A stretch of 39,595 bases of DNA from a phage. Below the pieces are notes generated by a model. That model ran no database searches. It saw only the letters and a list, made by a program, of their open reading frames with translations, and was not told where the DNA came from. The stretch lies in the sequence record PZ544513.1. One strand, written 5' to 3'. Below, piece after piece: positions 3,131-39,595 of the stretch. Positions within the stretch are counted from its first letter, which is position 1; each line of letters begins with the position of its first letter. A program made the position numbers and the translations under genes.

Positions 3131-3243
3131 GTACCACATCAACACGAAACAACGGTGACGACCAACACTGAAACGGTCTACCTGAAGTCCTCTGACTGAA
3201 GGGAATGCTCTTTAACAATCTGGATAAACTCTTAATGTGCGCC

Positions 3244-3310
3244 GACAGTGATTAACTACAGGGTCTTTGAGTCTACATCTGAAGGCCCTGACTGATAGTC
3301 ACTAGCAACC
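3244..3310 (+). other. Putative RNase III processing hairpin, early-region repeat copy A
   Basis: About 66-nt element CGACAGTGATTAACTACAGGGTC...GGCCCTGACTGATAGTCACTA with imperfect inverted symmetry (AGTGA/TCACT and CAGGG/CCCTG stems with internal loop); three copies, each immediately upstream of an early gene. Confidence 0.5.
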
Positions 3311-3324
3311 TAAGAGGATTCATT

Positions 3325-3603
3325 ATGAGACTGAACAAAGCTACAGCAGAAGCCTTTCGCAAGGAGCTTGAATCAAGATTATTGTGTGGAGTGGCGGAAG
3401 GAGCCGCTCGATATAAAGAGAATGGTCTAACGTTCAAGCGCTTTATGTGGGATTGCTATCACGGAGTGGGCCATAAAAAGTCGCAGGAAATAATCACCAG
3501 CAACAATGCGGAAGTGCAAGTGATAGGAGGATACATGGCTAACGTGAAGGATTCACACATAGAGACAATGCTTAAGAATGCACTTAAAGATGTAGCCTAC
3601 TAG
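3325..3603 (+). CDS. Hypothetical early protein (92 aa), first gene behind the host promoters
   Basis: ORF with RBS AAGAGGA 8 nt upstream of ATG; preceded by repeat copy A; no recognisable motif. Confidence 0.6.
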   Translation: MRLNKATAEAFRKELESRLLCGVAEGAARYKENGLTFKRFMWDCYHGVGHKKSQEIITSNNAEVQVIGGYMANVKDSHIETMLKNALKDVAY

Positions 3604-3658
3604 TGATTAACTACAGGTCGTTAGACTGATAGCGGCCTGACTGATAGTCACTAACACA
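3601..3658 (+). other. Putative RNase III processing hairpin, early-region repeat copy B (diverged)
   Basis: TAGTGATTAACTACAGG...CCTGACTGATAGTCACTAACA shares both flanks with copies A and C; immediately upstream of the ocr homolog. Confidence 0.45.
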
Positions 3659-4422: not shown

Positions 4423-4488
4423 CGACAGTGATTAACTACAGGGTCTTTGAGTCTACATCTGAAGGCCCTGACTGATAGCCACTAACAA
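4423..4488 (+). other. Putative RNase III processing hairpin, early-region repeat copy C
   Basis: Identical to copy A except 2 positions over 66 nt; immediately upstream of the ORF at 4503. Confidence 0.5.
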
Positions 4489-4502
4489 CTGAGAGGACAG
4501 AT

Positions 4503-31745: not shown

Positions 31746-34700
31746 ATGGCGACTCGTGGTATTCGCAATAACAATCCGGGTAACATCCGGGTAAGTAAGG
31801 ACCAATGGGAAGGAATGACTGGAGATGATGGCGCATTCGTCACCTTCGATAGTCCAGAGTCTGGCGTCCGAGCTTTAGGTAAAAACCTGCTGTCCTACGG
31901 TCGCCAAGGTTATGATTCCATCGAGAAGATTATCAACAGATGGGCACCTCCTAACGAGAACGACACTAAGGCTTATATTGACTCAGTGGTGGCTGCAACT
32001 GGTATTCCAGCTACACAGAGTCTCGACCTATCGGACCCTGACACCCTGTCTTCTCTGGCACAAGCTATCAGCTTCCATGAGACAGGCTCACGGTACGACC
32101 CTGAAGTCTATCAGAAGGGAGTCGCACGGGCACTCAACGGCATTAGCCCAAAGACTCCACCAGTAAGCGCTAACGTATTTGACGCACTCACGGAAGGACT
32201 CAAGGCTAAACCTAAAGTAGCTCTGGGTGAGAACCTTCCGACCGCTGCTGGTCTGAACATTGAGGGTCAAGCACCTGAATCTCCCAACGAATCGTTCGGT
32301 GAGATGTTCTATAAGGCTACTGGAGAGACCATGCAGGAGCAAGAGGACCGCTCTACGTGGTTCGGTTTCGGTGCGGCTACAGAAGCTGAAGTGAAGAACT
32401 CTATGGTCGGCGTGGCTATACGAGCTGGTCAGACTGAGGACTCACTGGATGTCATTGGCGATGTGTTCAACCCAACCAGATGGAACAACCATAAGTGGTC
32501 TCGTGAGGAGCTAGACCAGATTCGTAACGCTGGGGTTTTGCCTCAGTATTACGGAGTCATTACTGGTGGCTCTCCTCAGAACCTGACCGAGCTTATTAAC
32601 TTGGCGCTTGAGAACCAGAAGTTGGACCAAGAGAAGGCCAAGGCTGGGACTGGTGCTCAACTGGCGGCTGGTGTGATTGGTGCTGGCGTGGACCCTCTGA
32701 CCTACGTTCCTATTGCTGGGCAGGTAGGTAAAGGTGGTAAGCTAGTCAACAAGATGTTCACTGTGGCTGCTCAGTCTGGTGCTCTGGCTGGGGCATCCGA
32801 GATTGCTCGAACCTCAGTTGCTGGTGGGGACGCTCATGTTGCTGAAGCTATCCTTGGTGGCGCTCTCTTCGGTGGTGGCATGACTGCTATCGCTGATGGA
32901 CTAGGCAGAGCCTTAGGTCGCAACACTAATGAGTTTGCTGGTCCAGCTACACGTTTGGAAGCTCGTGAGACAGCTCGTAACGTTGATGGTCAGGACCTGT
33001 CCCGTCTCCCTATTCAGGAAGGTGAGCAGACCTTTAGTCATCAAGGCGTTAAGTTCGCTGACGTTCCGAATGAGCCGGGAAGTGTACGATTAGAAGACGG
33101 TTCAATCCTGATTGGTGAGAACCCTCTGAACCCTAAGACACGTCAAGTCTTTGACGAAGTGATTGAGCCGGAACGTGCCGCTGCTGGTGTGAACCTTGGT
33201 GGACTTACCGAGATTGGCCTGAAGCTGCTTCGGTCTGAGAACCCTGAGATTCGTGGAGTAGCTGCTGACTTAGTGCGTTCACCTACTGGTATGCAGTCTG
33301 GGGCCTCAGGTAAAATCGGGACAACTGCGTCAGACGTGTTCGAGAGACTTCGTTCTGTGGACCATCGGTTCTACAACGACATCGACGATGCGGTTACTGA
33401 GGCACTAAAGGACCCGTACTTCCAGACTGCATTCTGGCGAGACTCTGGCGCATTCCGTCAGGACATCTACCAGCGTGTGTCTATGGCTATCGAAGATGGT
33501 AGCGGAAACCTGAAGGCTGAACTGACTCCGGGAGAACTGAAAGTCTATGACCTACTGAAGAACCAGTTCGACGCCAAGCGTGAGATGATGGAGAACCCAG
33601 CGATGTTTGGTCGTCCAGACGCTCAGTCTATCTTTCCGGGTAGCCGCTTCAAGGGAACCTACGTCCCTCATGTGTATAGCAAACAGATGAAGGAGCTGTA
33701 CATCAAGGAGCTTGGGAGTCCAGAGGCGTTGCAGGAGGCCATCAAGAAGTCATGGTTGACCAGCTATGCGTCTCGACCTGAAGTCAAGAAACGCGTGGAC
33801 GAGGCACTTTTAGAGGCTGACCCTACGTTGACTCCAGAAGGACTTGCGGCTGCGGTCGATAAGTACGCCAACGATAAGGCTTATGGTATCTCTCACACCG
33901 AGCAGTTCGAGCGTTCATCCGTAATGGAGGAGAACATCAACGGGCTGGTGGGTCTGGAGAACAACAGCTTCCTTGAGGCTCGTAACCTGTTCGATAGCGA
34001 TATGTCAATCGTTCTTCCTAACGGTCAGACCTTCAGTGTCAACAACCTGCGTGAGTGGGACATGGACAAGATTGTCCCGGCCTACAACCGTCGAGTTAAT
34101 GGTGATATTGCTATCATGGCTGGTACAGGCAAGACCACGAAGGAAATGAAGGACTTAGTTGAGACCATGATGAACAAGGCTGGCGATGACGGAAAGTTGA
34201 AAGGTGAAGTATCTACCTTACGTGACACCCTGAAGATTCTCACTGGTCGTGCTCGACGTGATGGTGCTGATGATGCGGCCTTCGCTACCGTGATGCGCAT
34301 GATGACAGACCTATCGTTCTTCGCTAAGAATGCCTACATGGGTGTTCAGAACTTAACGGAGATTGGTGGTATGCTGGCTCGTGGTAACGTTCGTGCACTG
34401 CTACACGGAGTACCGATGTTCCGTGACCTAGCCTTCCGTAACAAGAAGGTCGGGGCCTCGGAGATTAAGGACCTGCATAATGTTATCTTCGGTAAAGAAT
34501 TAGACGACTCAATCCGTCCGTCTAAACAGGATGTTATCGACCGTCTGCGATCTTACAGTGACCTTAGTCGTGGTACAGCTACAGCTCTGGGGACTGCTAA
34601 GTATTACACTGGTGAACTTGTAGTACGCTCTCCGTTCACTAAAGTCCTCAACGGTACGACCAACTACCTGTTAGATGCTGGACGTCAAGGCTTCCTGTCT

Positions 34701-35633
34701 GACATAGTGGAGCATAGCCTGACTGGTAGTAAGCGTAAGTTCGATGACCGCTGGCTGAAGACCGCTGGTATATCTGACGAGCAGTGGAGTGGAATTAAGT
34801 CCCTAATCCGTGAGTCAGTGACTCGTGGGCCAGACGGGAAGTACACCATCAAGGATAAGAAGGCGTTCAGTCAGGACCCAAGGGCTATGGACCTGTGGCG
34901 TATGGGTGACACCATCGCTGACGAGACGTTACTCCGGCCTCATAAGCTGTCAAACATGGACGCCAAGGCTTATGGTCCTCTCGCTAAGACTGTCCTTCAG
35001 TTTAAGAACTTCGTCATCAAGTCTATCAATGGGAGAACCATGCGAACCTTCTATAACGCCACGAAGAACAACAGAGCGATTGACGCTGCACTGTCGACCG
35101 TGATGTCTATGGGTCTGGCTGGTATCTACTACATGGCTCAGGCGCATGTCAAGGCTTATGCTATGCAGGATGGTCGAGACCGTGACTACCTTAAGCAAGC
35201 TCTGGACCCAACGATGATTGGCTATGCGGCCCTGTCCCGTAGTTCACATCTTGGTGGCCCACTTGGGGTAGCTAACATTCTGGGAGGCATCGCTGGATAT
35301 GAGGACACTAAGATGCTCCGTTCGTCTATCCTACCTCGTTCTCCTACAGAGAAGCCTGAGCGTGCCATCGCGTATGGTGCAGCTACAAGTGACCCTGTGA
35401 TGAATGTTGTTGGTAACTTCTTGGAGCAGGTTCCAGCTTTCGGATATGCTGCTAACGTTGGCGCTTCGGCTTACAACTTGGCTGGCTACCTCAAGGCTGA
35501 TACTCGTGTCAACGAGCGTGACTACATGACCGGGATGTATAATACGTTCCGTGAACTGGTTCCGAACGACCCCATTACCCAGAAGCTGCTGCTTGGAACG
35601 TTTGAGGAGCAAGGCATCCACATCAAGGACTAA
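31746..35633 (+). CDS. 16: Internal virion protein D (T7 gp16 homolog), ejection/cell-wall-penetrating protein
   Basis: 1295 aa; long stretches colinear with T7 gp16 (DLVRSPTGMQSGASGK, ENPAMFG, GTYVPHVY, DKAYGISHTEQF, NNSFLEARNLFDSD, RRVNGDIAIMAGTGKTTKE, TNYLLDAGRQG, FSQDPRAMDLWR, NNRAIDAALS). Confidence 0.96.
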   Translation: MATRGIRNNNPGNIRVSKDQWEGMTGDDGAFVTFDSPESGVRALGKNLLSYGRQGYDSIEKIINRWAPPNENDTKAYIDSVVAATGIPATQSLDLSDPDTLSSLAQAISFHETGSRYDPEVYQKGVARALNGISPKTPPVSANVFDALTEGLKAKPKVALGENLPTAAGLNIEGQAPESPNESFGEMFYKATGETMQEQEDRSTWFGFGAATEAEVKNSMVGVAIRAGQTEDSLDVIGDVFNPTRWNNHKWSREELDQIRNAGVLPQYYGVITGGSPQNLTELINLALENQKLDQEKAKAGTGAQLAAGVIGAGVDPLTYVPIAGQVGKGGKLVNKMFTVAAQSGALAGASEIARTSVAGGDAHVAEAILGGALFGGGMTAIADGLGRALGRNTNEFAGPATRLEARETARNVDGQDLSRLPIQEGEQTFSHQGVKFADVPNEPGSVRLEDGSILIGENPLNPKTRQVFDEVIEPERAAAGVNLGGLTEIGLKLLRSENPEIRGVAADLVRSPTGMQSGASGKIGTTASDVFERLRSVDHRFYNDIDDAVTEALKDPYFQTAFWRDSGAFRQDIYQRVSMAIEDGSGNLKAELTPGELKVYDLLKNQFDAKREMMENPAMFGRPDAQSIFPGSRFKGTYVPHVYSKQMKELYIKELGSPEALQEAIKKSWLTSYASRPEVKKRVDEALLEADPTLTPEGLAAAVDKYANDKAYGISHTEQFERSSVMEENINGLVGLENNSFLEARNLFDSDMSIVLPNGQTFSVNNLREWDMDKIVPAYNRRVNGDIAIMAGTGKTTKEMKDLVETMMNKAGDDGKLKGEVSTLRDTLKILTGRARRDGADDAAFATVMRMMTDLSFFAKNAYMGVQNLTEIGGMLARGNVRALLHGVPMFRDLAFRNKKVGASEIKDLHNVIFGKELDDSIRPSKQDVIDRLRSYSDLSRGTATALGTAKYYTGELVVRSPFTKVLNGTTNYLLDAGRQGFLSDIVEHSLTGSKRKFDDRWLKTAGISDEQWSGIKSLIRESVTRGPDGKYTIKDKKAFSQDPRAMDLWRMGDTIADETLLRPHKLSNMDAKAYGPLAKTVLQFKNFVIKSINGRTMRTFYNATKNNRAIDAALSTVMSMGLAGIYYMAQAHVKAYAMQDGRDRDYLKQALDPTMIGYAALSRSSHLGGPLGVANILGGIAGYEDTKMLRSSILPRSPTEKPERAIAYGAATSDPVMNVVGNFLEQVPAFGYAANVGASAYNLAGYLKADTRVNERDYMTGMYNTFRELVPNDPITQKLLLGTFEEQGIHIKD

Positions 35634-35651
35634 ACTATCACTATAGGAAAC
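35629..35651 (+). promoter_or_regulatory. Phage RNAP promoter (phi17-like) CTAAACTATCACTATAGGAAACT
   Basis: Promoter family member overlapping the gene 16 stop. Confidence 0.7.
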
Positions 35652-35697
35652 TGGAGGCGCTACCATAGGTCTCCATTTAAATCACAAAGGAGGCATA

Positions 35698-38229
35698 ATG
35701 TCCACGATTACACAATTCCCTTCAGGAAACACTCAGTACAGGATTGAGTTCGACTACCTAGCCAGAACGTTTGTTGTTGTTACGCTGGTGAATAGCTCTA
35801 ACCCTACCCTGAACCGTGTACTGGAAGTTGGTCGAGATTACCGATTCCTTAATCCAACGATGATTGAGATGTTGGTTGACCAATCAGGTTTCGACATAGT
35901 TCGTATTCACCGTCAGACTGGAACTGACTTAGTGGTAGATTTCAGGAATGGCTCAGTGTTGACAGCTAGTGACCTGACCAATTCAGAGCTTCAGGCTATC
36001 CATATTGCAGAAGAAGGTCGAGACCAAACGGTTGACTTAGCGAAGGAATATGCCGATGCTGCTGGTAGCTCTGCTGGCAACGCTAAGGATAGCGAGGACG
36101 AAGCACGCCGAATCGCTGCGAGTATCAGGGAAGCTGGTCTAATTGGCTATATTACCCGTCGCTCCTTCGAGAAAGGCTACAACGTTACAACATGGAGCGA
36201 GGTCCTGCTATGGGAAGAGGATGGTGATTATTACCGCTGGGATGGTACGCTTCCAAAGAACGTTCCTGCTGGTTCAACTCCTGAAACTTCCGGTGGGATT
36301 GGATTAGGTGCGTGGGTTAGTGTTGGTGATGCTGCTTTAAGAAGTCAGATTTCAAACCCGGAAGGGGCAATACTCTACCCGGAATTGCAGATGGCAAGAT
36401 GGCGTGATGAGGGTGATGTTCGAGGCTGGGGTGCTAAAGGGGATGGTGTAACAGATAGTACGGAGAATATAGCTGCTTCACTAAATTCTCAAAAAGCTGT
36501 CGTAGCATCAGAAGGTGTATTCTCTAGTTCTGGTATTAATAGTAATTACTGTAACTTAGACGGTAGAGGTAGTGGCGTGCTAAGTCACCGTTCCAGTACA
36601 GGTAACTACTTAGTATTTAACAATCCACGTACAGGTCGCTTAAGTAATATTACGGTAGAAAGTAATAAGGCGACTGATACAACTCAGGGACATCAGGTAT
36701 CTCTTGCCGGTGGAAGTGATGTTACTGTAAGTGACGTTAACTTCTCAAACGTTAAAGGTACTGGTTTAAGTTTAATCGCATACCCTAATGATGCGCCACC
36801 TGATGGACTTATGATTAAAGGCATTCGAGGTAGCTATTCCGGATATGCTACTAATAAGGTAGCAGGATGCGTACTTGCTGACTCATCAGTTAACTCCCTC
36901 ATAGATAACGTCATTGCTAAGAACTACCCTCAGTTCGGAGCAGTAGAGTTGAAAGGTACAGCCAGTTACAACATAGTAAGTAATGTTATAGGGGCAGATT
37001 GCCAGCATGTAACTTACAACGGCACTGAAGGGCCAATAGCTCCTTCTAATAACCTTATCAAGGGGGTGATGGCTAATAACCCTAAGTATGCAGCGGTTGT
37101 TGCAGGCAAAGGAAGTACGAACTTAATCTCAGACGTGCTCGTAGATTACTCAACTTCTGATGCTAGGCAGGCTCATGGTGTTACCGTAGAAGGGTCTGAT
37201 AACGTCATAAATAATGTGCTTATGTCAGGATGTGATGGTACTAACTCTTTAGGACAAGGGCAGGCTGCTACAATTGCACGCTTTATAGGTACAGCTAATA
37301 ACAACTATGCGTCTGTATTTCCTAGCTACAGTGCTACAGGTGTTATTACTTTCGAATCCGGCTCTACCCGTAACTTCGTAGAGGTAAAGCACCCTGGAAG
37401 GAGGAACGACCTTCTCAGTTCTGCTAGTACTATTGACGGTGCAGCTACTATTGACGGCACTAATAATAGTAACGTAGTGCACGCACCCGCCTTAGGGCAG
37501 TACATAGGTAGTATGTCAGGTAGGTTCGAATGGAGGATTAAGTCCATGTCACTCCCTTCAGGCGTTCTTACTTCTGCTGATAAGTACAGAATGCTTGGTG
37601 ATGGTGCTGTATCATTAGCTTTAGGTGGGGGTACTTCTTCTCAAGTTCGCCTATTTACTTCTGATGGTACTTCTCGGACAGTGTCCCTAACCAACGGTAA
37701 CGTGCGTCTTTCTACCAGTAGCACAGGCTATTTGCAGTTAGGTGCTGATGCAATGACCCCAGATAGTACTGGTACATACTCATTAGGTTCCGCCAGTCGA
37801 GCATGGTCTGGCGGTTTTACTCAAGCAGCATTCACTGTTACCTCAGATGCTCGGTGTAAAACAGAACCTCTTACTATCTCAGATGCCTTACTGGATGCTT
37901 GGTCTGAAGTTGACTTTGTGCAGTTTCAGTATTTGGATCGTGTTGAGGAGAAGGGTGCAGACTCAGCTAGATGGCACTTTGGCATCATAGCTCAGCGAGC
38001 TAAGGAGGCTTTCGAACGTCACGGTATAGATGCACATCGCTATGGCTTCTTATGCTTCGACAGTTGGGATGATGTATACGAGGAAGATGCCAATGGCTCT
38101 CGTAGACTGATTACACCAGCAGGTTCCCGCTACGGTATTCGTTACGAGGAAGTACTGATATTAGAGGCTGCGTTGATGCGGCGGACTATTAAGCGTATGC
38201 AGGAAGCATTAGCTGTTATGTCTAAGTGA
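35698..38229 (+). CDS. 17: Tail fiber / tailspike: T7 gp17-like N-terminal adaptor, central putative beta-helix enzymatic domain, C-terminal S74-type intramolecular chaperone
   Basis: N-terminal 150 aa colinear with T7 gp17 (F.YLAR.FVVVTL, DYRF, LRAYDL / LTASDL, IHIAEE.RD); C-terminus SDARCKTEP...WHFGIIAQRAKEAF resembles recalled chaperone-of-endosialidase autoproteolytic domains; AT-rich middle. Confidence 0.9.
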   Translation: MSTITQFPSGNTQYRIEFDYLARTFVVVTLVNSSNPTLNRVLEVGRDYRFLNPTMIEMLVDQSGFDIVRIHRQTGTDLVVDFRNGSVLTASDLTNSELQAIHIAEEGRDQTVDLAKEYADAAGSSAGNAKDSEDEARRIAASIREAGLIGYITRRSFEKGYNVTTWSEVLLWEEDGDYYRWDGTLPKNVPAGSTPETSGGIGLGAWVSVGDAALRSQISNPEGAILYPELQMARWRDEGDVRGWGAKGDGVTDSTENIAASLNSQKAVVASEGVFSSSGINSNYCNLDGRGSGVLSHRSSTGNYLVFNNPRTGRLSNITVESNKATDTTQGHQVSLAGGSDVTVSDVNFSNVKGTGLSLIAYPNDAPPDGLMIKGIRGSYSGYATNKVAGCVLADSSVNSLIDNVIAKNYPQFGAVELKGTASYNIVSNVIGADCQHVTYNGTEGPIAPSNNLIKGVMANNPKYAAVVAGKGSTNLISDVLVDYSTSDARQAHGVTVEGSDNVINNVLMSGCDGTNSLGQGQAATIARFIGTANNNYASVFPSYSATGVITFESGSTRNFVEVKHPGRRNDLLSSASTIDGAATIDGTNNSNVVHAPALGQYIGSMSGRFEWRIKSMSLPSGVLTSADKYRMLGDGAVSLALGGGTSSQVRLFTSDGTSRTVSLTNGNVRLSTSSTGYLQLGADAMTPDSTGTYSLGSASRAWSGGFTQAAFTVTSDARCKTEPLTISDALLDAWSEVDFVQFQYLDRVEEKGADSARWHFGIIAQRAKEAFERHGIDAHRYGFLCFDSWDDVYEEDANGSRRLITPAGSRYGIRYEEVLILEAALMRRTIKRMQEALAVMSK

Positions 38230-38444
38230 GTAATACTGGTACGGTATTTTCGCACAATGAAATCGTTGAACACACTGACGAGGAGGGTAATGTCACTACT
38301 ACGGAAGAACCTGTATACACCGAGGTGGTTATTCACGAAGAGGGTGAGGAGTGGGGGGTGTTCGGCCTGACGGAATTTTCTTTGCTGAAGCCGCTTATCA
38401 GAGAAGAAACTGGAAAGAATCGAAGCCAGACTTTCTGCTCTTGA
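38226..38444 (+). CDS. Hypothetical acidic protein (72 aa, GTG start); doubtful
   Basis: GTG overlaps the gene 17 stop (GTGA); Glu-rich; no RBS; overlaps another candidate ORF (38351..38569). Confidence 0.25.
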   Translation: MSNTGTVFSHNEIVEHTDEEGNVTTTEEPVYTEVVIHEEGEEWGVFGLTEFSLLKPLIREETGKNRSQTFCS

Positions 38445-38565
38445 ACAGAAGTAATAAACAAAATCACTTTGCCATTAGGTTGGTGGGGGTAGAGACTAAC
38501 TACACGCTAACCAACGTATGTAACAACTTTGGGTCACGGACGACCCGCTTTAAACTGGAGGTTTT

Positions 38566-38760
38566 ATGATTGAGTTAGACTTCAAGAATGAGGTCCTTAA
38601 AGCCTCTCCTATCGTCGGGACCGCTGCGGCTGATGGTGCCAGTCGGTTCTTCTTCGGACTTACACTGAACGAATGGTTCTACGTTGCAGCTATCGCGTAC
38701 ACCGTTGTCCAGATTGGTGTGCTAGTCTACAAAACGATTAAAGGAGGTGGTAAAACATGA
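38566..38760 (+). CDS. 17.5: Type II holin (T7 gp17.5 homolog)
   Basis: ASPIVGTAAADGASRFFFGLTLNEWFYVAAIAYTVVQIG is near-identical to recalled T7 gp17.5; RBS CTGGAGG. Confidence 0.93.
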   Translation: MIELDFKNEVLKASPIVGTAAADGASRFFFGLTLNEWFYVAAIAYTVVQIGVLVYKTIKGGGKT

Positions 38761-39020
38761 CGCAGATGGACTTAGAGAAGTTCCTCTTGATGCTTGATAC
38801 TGAACGTGCTAGACTCATGCTGCAAGACCTGCGGGATGACTCTAAGCGTTCACCTCAGCTTTACAACGCCATTGAGAAGCTACTGGCTCGTCACAACTTC
38901 GTGCTAAGTAAGGTGTCTGTGGACGAGAAGACGCTGGCTGATATGGAGGCCCTGAACGCAGAGTACGATAAGGTGCTTTCAGCGACTGAGGATAATGACA
39001 CCGGGTATGGCGTTCAATAA
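38757..39020 (+). CDS. 18: Small terminase subunit (T7 gp18 homolog)
   Basis: 87 aa; LLMLDTERARLMLQDLRDDSKRSPQLYNAIEKLLARHNF aligns with recalled T7 gp18 (FLEMLDTAMAQRMLADLSDHERRSPQLYNAIDKLLDRHKF). Confidence 0.93.
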   Translation: MTQMDLEKFLLMLDTERARLMLQDLRDDSKRSPQLYNAIEKLLARHNFVLSKVSVDEKTLADMEALNAEYDKVLSATEDNDTGYGVQ

Positions 39021-39116: not shown

Positions 39117-39566
39117 ATGCTCGAATTTTTAAAGAGAGCGGCTCCGTGGGTACTTGCAGCAGTGATGTTTGCTGGTGGCTACCACACCGCTAACAATAAG
39201 TGGGAGGCTAAGGTCAATGAAGAATACACCTCGAATCTTAAGGCATCGGAAGATACAAGGCTTGCTGTCCAAGCTGAAGTCAACAAAGTGTCCAAACGGT
39301 TTCAGGACGAAATGTCCTCGCTGGAAGGCAGCACTGATAGGATTATTGCTGACCTTCAGTCTGACAATAAGCGGTTGCGCATCCGAGTCAAACCAACGAG
39401 TGGAACCACGCAAAGTGACGGTCGATGCTTCATTGATGGTTACGCCGAACTTGACGAACGAGATGCTAAACGTCTTATCGCCATCGGAGTGAAAGGAGAC
39501 AAGTGGATTAAGGCCCTTCAAGACACTGTGAGAGCCTTACAGCAAGAGAAGGAGGTGACGCATTGA
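39117..39566 (+). CDS. 18.5: i-spanin Rz (T7 gp18.5 homolog)
   Basis: 149 aa; N-terminal transmembrane segment AAPWVLAAVMFAGGY followed by charged coiled-coil-like periplasmic domain; RBS GGGAGGG. Confidence 0.88.
   Translation: MLEFLKRAAPWVLAAVMFAGGYHTANNKWEAKVNEEYTSNLKASEDTRLAVQAEVNKVSKRFQDEMSSLEGSTDRIIADLQSDNKRLRIRVKPTSGTTQSDGRCFIDGYAELDERDAKRLIAIGVKGDKWIKALQDTVRALQQEKEVTH
39214..39492 (+). CDS. Putative o-spanin Rz1 (gp18.7-like) embedded in the +1 frame of Rz; start codon uncertain
   Basis: Embedded frame encodes ...RWKAALIGLLLTFSLTISGC with a lipobox (ISGC) and Cys at about 39376; no canonical start immediately upstream of the signal peptide, so the N-terminus is unresolved. Confidence 0.3.
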   Translation, partial: SMKNTPRILRHRKIQGLLSKLKSTKCPNGFRTKCPRWKAALIGLLLTFSLTISGCASESNQRVEPRKVTVDASLMVTPNLTNEMLNVLSPSE

Positions 39567-39595
39567 GTAAAGACTTAGTGGCGCGTCAGGCGCTA
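39563..39595 (+). CDS. 19: Large terminase subunit (gp19) 5-prime end; continues at window position 1
   Basis: TTG at 39563 preceded by GAAGGAGG (39548-39555); frame continues without stop to the window end and joins the frame of the ORF at 1..1731, giving [21 protein letters not shown]... which aligns with the recalled T7 gp19 N-terminus. Confidence 0.6.
   Translation, partial: MSKDLVARQAL

Follow-up and report, generated by a model that had tools for sequence, protein, structure and literature searches.

What occupies the interval between the tailspike gene (gene 17) and the holin gene (gene 17.5) of this phage, and is either of the two short open reading frames (ORFs) found there a gene? 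The window, by which we mean the whole 39,595-nt stretch of DNA that was analysed (PZ544513.1), belongs to a K1F-like member of the T7 group, genus Kayfunavirus, and its nearest database records are Kayfunavirus genomes that are 97.5-98.7% identical to it across the region. Gene 17 is a single ORF of 843 aa (35698-38229) whose TGA stop lies at 38227-38229, and the ATG of the holin gene is at 38566, leaving a gap of 336 nt (38230-38565). The original prediction had described a gap of about 330 bp with two overlapping, doubtful ORFs, and this description proved accurate. The corresponding gap in K1F is smaller, at 133 nt, while the distance from gene 17 to the holin gene ranges from 0 to 440 nt among relatives with similar holins. 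The reading frames concerned are the following.

38226-38444, forward strand: ORF1, GTG start, 72 aa, acidic (pI 4.37)
38351-38569, forward strand: ORF2, GTG start, 72 aa, basic (pI 10.0)
38566-38760, forward strand: gene 17.5, class II holin of the T7 family (PF10746, E 2e-22; annotated as holin in relatives)

Our answer, which we hold with a probability of about 93%, is that the segment at 38240-38457 is a non-functional relic of a K1F-type endosialidase gene, that is, a recombination scar rather than a new gene.

Homology of the gap to K1F gene 17 and the make-up of the two ORFs

When the locus was used in a similarity search, dozens of K1F-type phages matched it only from window position 38240 rightwards. 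In K1F, this match starts inside gene 17, 214 nt upstream of the stop codon, and it extends past the end of the gene into the K1F 17/17.5 spacer, with 96.9% identity over 255 nt. Across the part that lies within gene 17, window positions 38240-38457 differ from K1F positions 35642-35858 by one substitution and two homopolymer indels. The annotation of K1F (AM084414) describes gene 17 as an endosialidase (endoNF) precursor and assigns residues 911-1064 (35391-35852) to a C-terminal intramolecular chaperone domain (CTD) that is cleaved after folding. The matching K1F stretch translates as a peptide ending in TVFSHNEIVEHTDEEGNVTTTEEPVYTEVVIHEEGEEWGVRPDGIFFAEAAYQRRKLERIEARLSALEQK and a stop codon, and the window segment corresponds to the C-terminal 70 aa of this 154-aa domain.

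38240-38457, forward strand: probable relic (pseudogene fragment) of K1F-type gene 17, codons 995-1064 plus TAA TAA stops at 38452-38457
38353-38358, forward strand: first frameshift, a run of G6, +2 relative to G4 in K1F
38407-38409, forward strand: second frameshift, a run of A3, -1 relative to A4 in K1F

The three reading frames of the window carry successive pieces of the ancestral protein, with TVFSH...EEWG in frame 0, GVRPDGIFFAEAAYQRR in frame 2, and KLERIEARLSALEQK followed by both stop codons in frame 1. The G run at the first frameshift is G5 in the related phage 101120B1-2 and G4 in phage AN24P4, as it is in K1F. Since the two homopolymer indels spread the old frame over three frames, two apparently overlapping GTG ORFs arise, each of which also overlaps one neighbouring gene by 4 nt. 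ORF1 starts with a GTG that lies over the stop codon of gene 17, continues through 39 ancestral codons, and thereafter reads on out of frame. ORF2 is made up of 17 ancestral codons (those of the frame 2 piece), followed by out-of-frame read-on across the spacer until it terminates at a TGA that overlaps the holin ATG. A Pfam search returned no match for either ORF.

The lack of a convincing ribosome-binding site, which had been noted for both ORFs, holds for ORF1 only, as ORF2 does have a GAGGG 6 nt upstream of its GTG; these bases are part of the EEGEEW codons of the ancestral gene. It had further been supposed that at most one of the two ORFs was likely to be real. Judged from their sequences, both are artefacts made of pieces of the old gene 17 frame and frameshifted read-on, and neither is a gene, so that both could be removed from the annotation. 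Codon-usage scoring, which had been suggested as a check, would mark either frame as coding, since both include segments that used to be part of a gene.

The segment thus resembles the chaperone domain of K1F gene 17 nearly base for base, and the spacer and holin gene downstream of it are likewise collinear with K1F. It differs from the K1F gene in being a severed piece, comprising only the last 70 of 1064 codons, that sits behind the stop codon of another gene 17 in a different frame and is interrupted by two frameshifts. It also lacks the core of the chaperone fold: PF13884 (Peptidase_S74) had no Pfam match in either ORF, and this core covers CTD residues 5-61 in K1F, while the relic starts at CTD residue 85.

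Seven phages carry functional copies, i.e., a 1064-aa endosialidase gene; read in the gene 17 frame, 9 of the 12 sites that vary among them in this stretch are third codon positions, and an alignment of 72 columns (71 residues and the stop) has just 3 variable ones. Conservation of a frame with variation at synonymous sites, which had been suggested as the mark of a genuine ORF, was therefore found for the gene 17 frame, and there only where it is still part of an endosialidase gene, but for neither of the small ORFs. The relic itself shows a single substitution in 217 nt relative to K1F, which is too few to compare substitution patterns. Since it is nearly identical to K1F, divergence alone cannot show relaxed constraint, and the case rests on the indels described above and on the deletions seen in relatives.

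The live gene 17, its junctions and the proposed exchange

The intact gene upstream of the gap combines two sources, and the boundaries between them can be placed on the sequence.

35698-36456, forward strand: K1F-type 5' part of gene 17, the virion-attachment N-terminus, approximately aa 1-253 (from K1F identity and Pfam)
36421-38229, forward strand: K5 lyase (KflA-type) body with its own C-terminal chaperone domain and TGA stop (from identity to K1-5 gp46)
38230-38239, forward strand: 10 nt, GTAATACTGG, putative donor 3' flank carried with the K5 lyase cassette
38240-38245, forward strand: TACGGT microhomology at the right-hand joint, present in both the UE-S5b flank and K1F gene 17

On the left, window positions 35437-36456 align with K1F positions 32400-33419 over 1020 nt with 96.5% identity and no gaps. 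At the protein level, gene 17 aa 1-263 are 93.5% identical to K1F, and this N-terminal part matches the Pfam families Phage_T7_tail and Tail_spike_N. The remainder of the protein is of a different type, with aa 242-843 being 96% identical to aa 31-632 of K1-5 gp46 over 602 residues that include the chaperone domain, and with a Peptidase_S74 match at aa 716-776 (54 bits, Pfam). For the corresponding DNA, identity to the K5, K1-5, and 6949 lyase genes is 95-100%. By sequence identity, the adjacent live gene 17 is a predicted K5 lyase (KflA) tailspike, similar to the K5 lyase of phage K5 (Y10025) and to K1-5 gp46 throughout aa 242-843, chaperone domain included. In K1-5 and K5, the lyase forms a spike by itself and is attached to an adapter by a short N-terminal peptide (PMC6872550), whereas the lyase of the window is fused to a K1F/T7-type gene 17 N-terminus. 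A further difference from K1-5 and K5 is that the last five codons of the window lyase and its 3' flank are of the type found in UE-S5b, an N4-like phage.

The lyase sequence at 36600-38229 is closer to the Vectrevirus (SP6-like) phages K5, K1-5, and 6949 (95-100% identity per 100 nt) than to other kayfunaviruses with a K5 lyase (90-99%), with the exception of its last ~15 nt and the flank. This pattern suggests a later gene conversion between co-infecting K5 phages.

A three-way alignment places the left crossover near 36456, within a GAKGDGxTDDT motif that is common to both spikes; in 36421-36470, K1F and K1-5 have an identical 11-mer, ACTGATGATAC. At the right-hand joint, the last 15 nt of the lyase gene plus GTAATACTGGTACGGT are common to the window and the K5 lyase locus of the Gamaleyavirus UE-S5b. 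The 10-nt flank directly behind the lyase stop is likewise shared with the K5 lyase flank of UE-S5b, and it was found neither in K1F nor in the K5 lyase flanks of Vectrevirus phages. Similarity to each parent stops or begins at TACGGT, with identity to K1F starting there, as would be expected for illegitimate recombination at a 6-nt microhomology. Since the flank shared with UE-S5b ends exactly at this microhomology, we argue that the UE-S5b-type flank represents the donor state rather than a copy acquired from a kayfunavirus. The UE-S5b genome (73.8 kb; L005, 1-2146) has the same K5 lyase 3' end, including AVMSK and the stop codon, plus 16 nt of flank, and the occurrence of this 3' end in an N4-like phage indicates that the cassette moves between three unrelated podovirus groups.

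Since K1F gene 17 sequence lies on both sides of the lyase cassette, replacement of the interior of an endosialidase gene is the most economical interpretation. The ancestor would have been a K1F-like kayfunavirus whose gene 17 encoded a K1-capsule endosialidase, and the direction of the exchange would have been from K1 to K5. A double crossover would have substituted a K5-capsule lyase cassette for the interior of gene 17, approximately K1F codons 254-994, and the incoming cassette would have included the C-terminal chaperone domain and stop codon of the lyase along with a few bases of 3' flank. On the left, the crossover may have used the GAKGDGxTDDT motif of the two spikes, while the right crossover was probably illegitimate and would have used the TACGGT microhomology inside the old gene. 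Because the latter would have fallen inside the old gene, the end of that gene, i.e., its last 70 codons and double stop, would have been left downstream of the new stop codon and in a different frame.

By its position, this stub would be transcribed as part of the late unit that runs from the promoter at 35630-35647 into the holin gene. Having no start codon of its own and presumably no selective value, it would be decaying through slippage in homopolymer runs and through loss of DNA between short direct repeats. The extra ~228 nt had been called an insertion in the original prediction; on the reading given here, they are the residue of a replacement, and nothing was inserted. The same prediction had offered as an alternative that the segment could be the remnant of a swapped fiber module boundary, and it is this suggestion that the genome comparisons bear out.

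Exchanges of this kind are well documented. In T7/K1F-like and capsule-specific phages, the N-terminal anchor of the receptor-binding protein is conserved and the enzymatic part behind it is replaced, in some cases along with the chaperone that belongs to it (Latka et al. 2019, PMC6872550). The stub is a fresh instance of this known event, a receptor-binding-protein module swap, in that the anchor was kept, the enzymatic domain and chaperone were swapped, and the capsule specificity was, by prediction, changed. In contrast with the exchanges described in that work, the window keeps a datable stub, both of its junctions are resolved to the base, and its relatives form a series of decay states. 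The study behind the closest relatives mentions just "CDS 002 (K5 lyase)" (PMC8614997), and a literature search found no description of the stub or of the hairpin near gene 17.5 that is described below.

The locus would therefore be a molecular fossil of a host-range switch in which a K1-specific, K1F-like phage became K5-specific through a swap of the enzymatic body of its single tailspike. For engineering, it indicates where natural swaps were tolerated: on the left, within the GAKGDGxTDDT motif, and on the right, at any position downstream of the stop codon that the cassette brings along. The current understanding of phage evolution is unchanged by these findings, which illustrate what is already known.

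The phages K1E, K5, and K1-5 are SP6-like and have two spike slots. Truncated or leftover tail-protein ORFs reportedly lie beside their spike genes, and the stub resembles these in being the remnant of a second or former spike gene that adjoins the active one. It differs from them in being a 3' stub in the single gene 17 slot of a T7/K1F-like phage.

Relatives that share the junction

The interval from the gene 17 stop codon to the holin ATG was compared between the window and eight kayfunaviruses that have the same K5 lyase 3' end, giving nine phages in total. The left edge (GTAATACTGGTACGGTATTT...) is identical in all nine, and this points to a single ancestral event. Beyond the left edge, the gaps differ as follows.

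AN24P4: gap of 341 nt; old frame intact
101120B1-2: gap of 334 nt; one T lost, one G gained
Window: gap of 336 nt; two G gained, one A lost
ZG49, IME177, vB_EcoP-R1: gap of 104 nt; ~230 nt lost, with breakpoints at ACAC
22664UKE3-2, SHAK7854: gaps of 183 and 186 nt, respectively; ~150 nt (150-153) lost, with breakpoints between two ACTGG
Midid: gap of 130 nt; a third deletion, of ~206 nt

The relic thus exists in the K5-lyase kayfunaviruses with three different deletions between short repeats and with two other indel patterns. Absence of the segment from otherwise identical relatives had been put forward as informative, and it is largely missing in ZG49, IME177, vB_EcoP-R1, 22664UKE3-2, SHAK7854, and Midid, all of which have the same tailspike 3' end. 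Among these deletion variants, ZG49 and 22664UKE3-2 included, no ORF of at least 35 codons was found except for a 36-codon ORF in Midid. The full-length forms also differ in coding potential, since 101120B1-2 and AN24P4 are 98.7% and 97.5% identical, respectively, to window positions 38100-38700 and yet have different sets of ORFs. In the 101120B1-2 record, a 55-codon "tail fiber protein" is annotated on the relic; this call is the same artefact as the ORFs of the window. The series as a whole shows how fast, and by which lesions (homopolymer slippage and microhomology deletions), a small lytic genome sheds useless DNA.

Against the reading as a scar, full-length relics persist in at least 8 database records, six of which come from one breeding study. 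All of the relic indels, moreover, fall in homopolymers, where sequencing errors may account for part of them; if so, the relic of the window might have an intact frame like that of AN24P4.

A kayfunavirus from IMG/VR (L028, UViG_2974574648, 39747 nt; 1043-1200) has an unrelated beta-helix spike that lacks a chaperone domain. Its spike gene ends in its own stop codon plus 21 nt, after which a different, 38-nt piece of K1F chaperone-domain sequence is fused to the spacer. Since this scar is independent, endosialidase stubs have been left behind more than once. In four other relatives (L042, L044, L046, and L049), 343-440 nt separate the holin gene from the long ORF that precedes it, and the gap of L042 holds a terminator-like hairpin (AAACCCCGCTTTGGCGGGTTATTTTT); these gaps may be further scars or may contain small genes.

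The spacer, its hairpin and competing explanations

Between the relic and the holin gene lies sequence that is also found in K1F.

38458-38565, forward strand: ordinary K1F-like gene 17/17.5 spacer, 108 nt, collinear with K1F
38531-38546, forward strand: hairpin GGGTC-ACGGAC-GACCC, 10 nt upstream of the holin Shine-Dalgarno sequence
38557-38561, forward strand: holin Shine-Dalgarno sequence GGAGG, in the conserved ~40-nt core

A ~23-nt unit of the spacer is present in one copy in the window and in two copies in K1F, and close relatives that retain the spacer keep only its last ~40 nt. The hairpin at 38531-38546 is present in every deletion variant. More distant relatives retain the loop A[A/C]GGAN but have altered stems in which the changes compensate each other (TGGTC/GACCA, AGTCC/GGACT, AGACC/GGTCT, and TACC/GGTA). 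When 15 distinct sequences were compared, pairing was preserved in 91% of cells, versus 19-53% in slid controls, with 5 of the 6 pairs showing changes on both sides. The hairpin lies upstream of the holin ribosome-binding site in several groups of T7-like phages. The fold of the whole spacer was not remarkable (z = -1.76).

By this covariation, the hairpin looks like a real element that may affect holin translation or mRNA stability. A more specific role, as an undescribed cis-element that acts on holin translation and lysis timing or serves as a site of mRNA processing or stability, is a tentative proposal that we consider somewhat unlikely. We would say the same of a separate idea, that the stub and the conserved spacer could serve as a homology arm easing a swap back to the former spike.

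The gap was also searched for signals of transcription. A phage promoter consensus derived from the window's own repeats (CTWAACTATCACTATAGG) was scanned with up to 3 mismatches allowed and gave 11 sites in the window, none of which lies in 38230-38565; the nearest, at 35630-35647, is just upstream of gene 17. Neither a sigma-70 promoter (-35/-10 hexamers) nor an intrinsic terminator (GC-rich hairpin followed by a T run) was found in the gap, the only terminator-like match being inside the holin gene at 38627-38645, and Rfam returned no match at E ≤ 1 in 38000-38800.

With these data, other explanations of the segment can be weighed. That ORF1 or ORF2 is a genuine small gene of this phage might be thought from the fact that both span 72 codons of the coding strand and adjoin neighbouring genes in a manner that looks like coupling, and from the GAGGG in front of ORF2. 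We regard this as extremely improbable, since each ORF is a fragment of the K1F gene 17 frame with frameshifted read-on, 101120B1-2 and AN24P4 have neither of them in this form, six relatives that share the spike have lost the region, and neither ORF matches Pfam. It is also very unlikely that an intact relic is translated by GTGA stop-start coupling to yield a chaperone piece of ~75 aa that is still useful, e.g., for trimer assembly in trans. Such a role would fit the unbroken 75-codon frame of AN24P4, which runs from a GTG overlapping the gene 17 TGA, and the nearly unchanged state of the relic relative to K1F. However, the frame is broken in both the window and 101120B1-2, and three different deletions remove the relic from relatives that were isolated as viable phages. 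Moreover, the piece lacks the Peptidase_S74 core, and the K5 lyase has a complete chaperone domain of its own. Where the relic is intact, as in AN24P4, low-level translation of a 75-aa peptide via the GTGA overlap might nonetheless take place.

The extra segment could instead be a noncoding regulatory element, such as a promoter, terminator, or processing site, that separates gene 17 from the genes for lysis and packaging. Its intergenic position, the variable-length spacers that many relatives have here, and the existence of a covarying hairpin at 38531-38546 are all compatible with such an element. The hairpin, however, belongs to the common spacer and lies outside the extra 228 nt, none of the 11 phage promoter sites falls in the gap, and the gap has no sigma-70 promoter, terminator pattern, or Rfam match. 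Since the extra part is, in addition, homologous to coding sequence and dispensable in relatives, we consider a regulatory function very unlikely. Finally, homopolymer-length differences of the kind present here are typical of sequencing error, and one could ask if reads of a K5 phage and of a K1F-like phage were wrongly joined here, which would make the segment a chimera of the assembly or an artefact of sequencing. The chance of this is close to negligible, because the same junction appears in independent records from different accession series, which also differ in country or study wherever one is given (China, Australia, and a separate phage-breeding study), and several of the records that share it carry further, distinct deletions.

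Some other features of the window were observed alongside this locus. The sequence is given in circularly permuted form and opens with the ATG of a 576-aa ORF (1-1731) at the position of gene 19 (large terminase). An HNH homing endonuclease gene, which the close relatives 101120B1-2 and 22664UKE3-2 carry between genes 18.5 and 19, is absent from the corresponding place in the window (39566-39595 and position 1). Two perfect tandem copies of a 149-nt sequence (2438-2586 and 2588-2736) resemble the joined left and right terminal repeats of a concatemer junction, and the physical ends of the genome are therefore probably near 2587. The early region contains a 67-nt repeat that is 97% identical between its two copies (3243-3309 and 4423-4489), as well as motifs of 16-21 nt at 3247-3262, 3602-3617, and 4427-4442.
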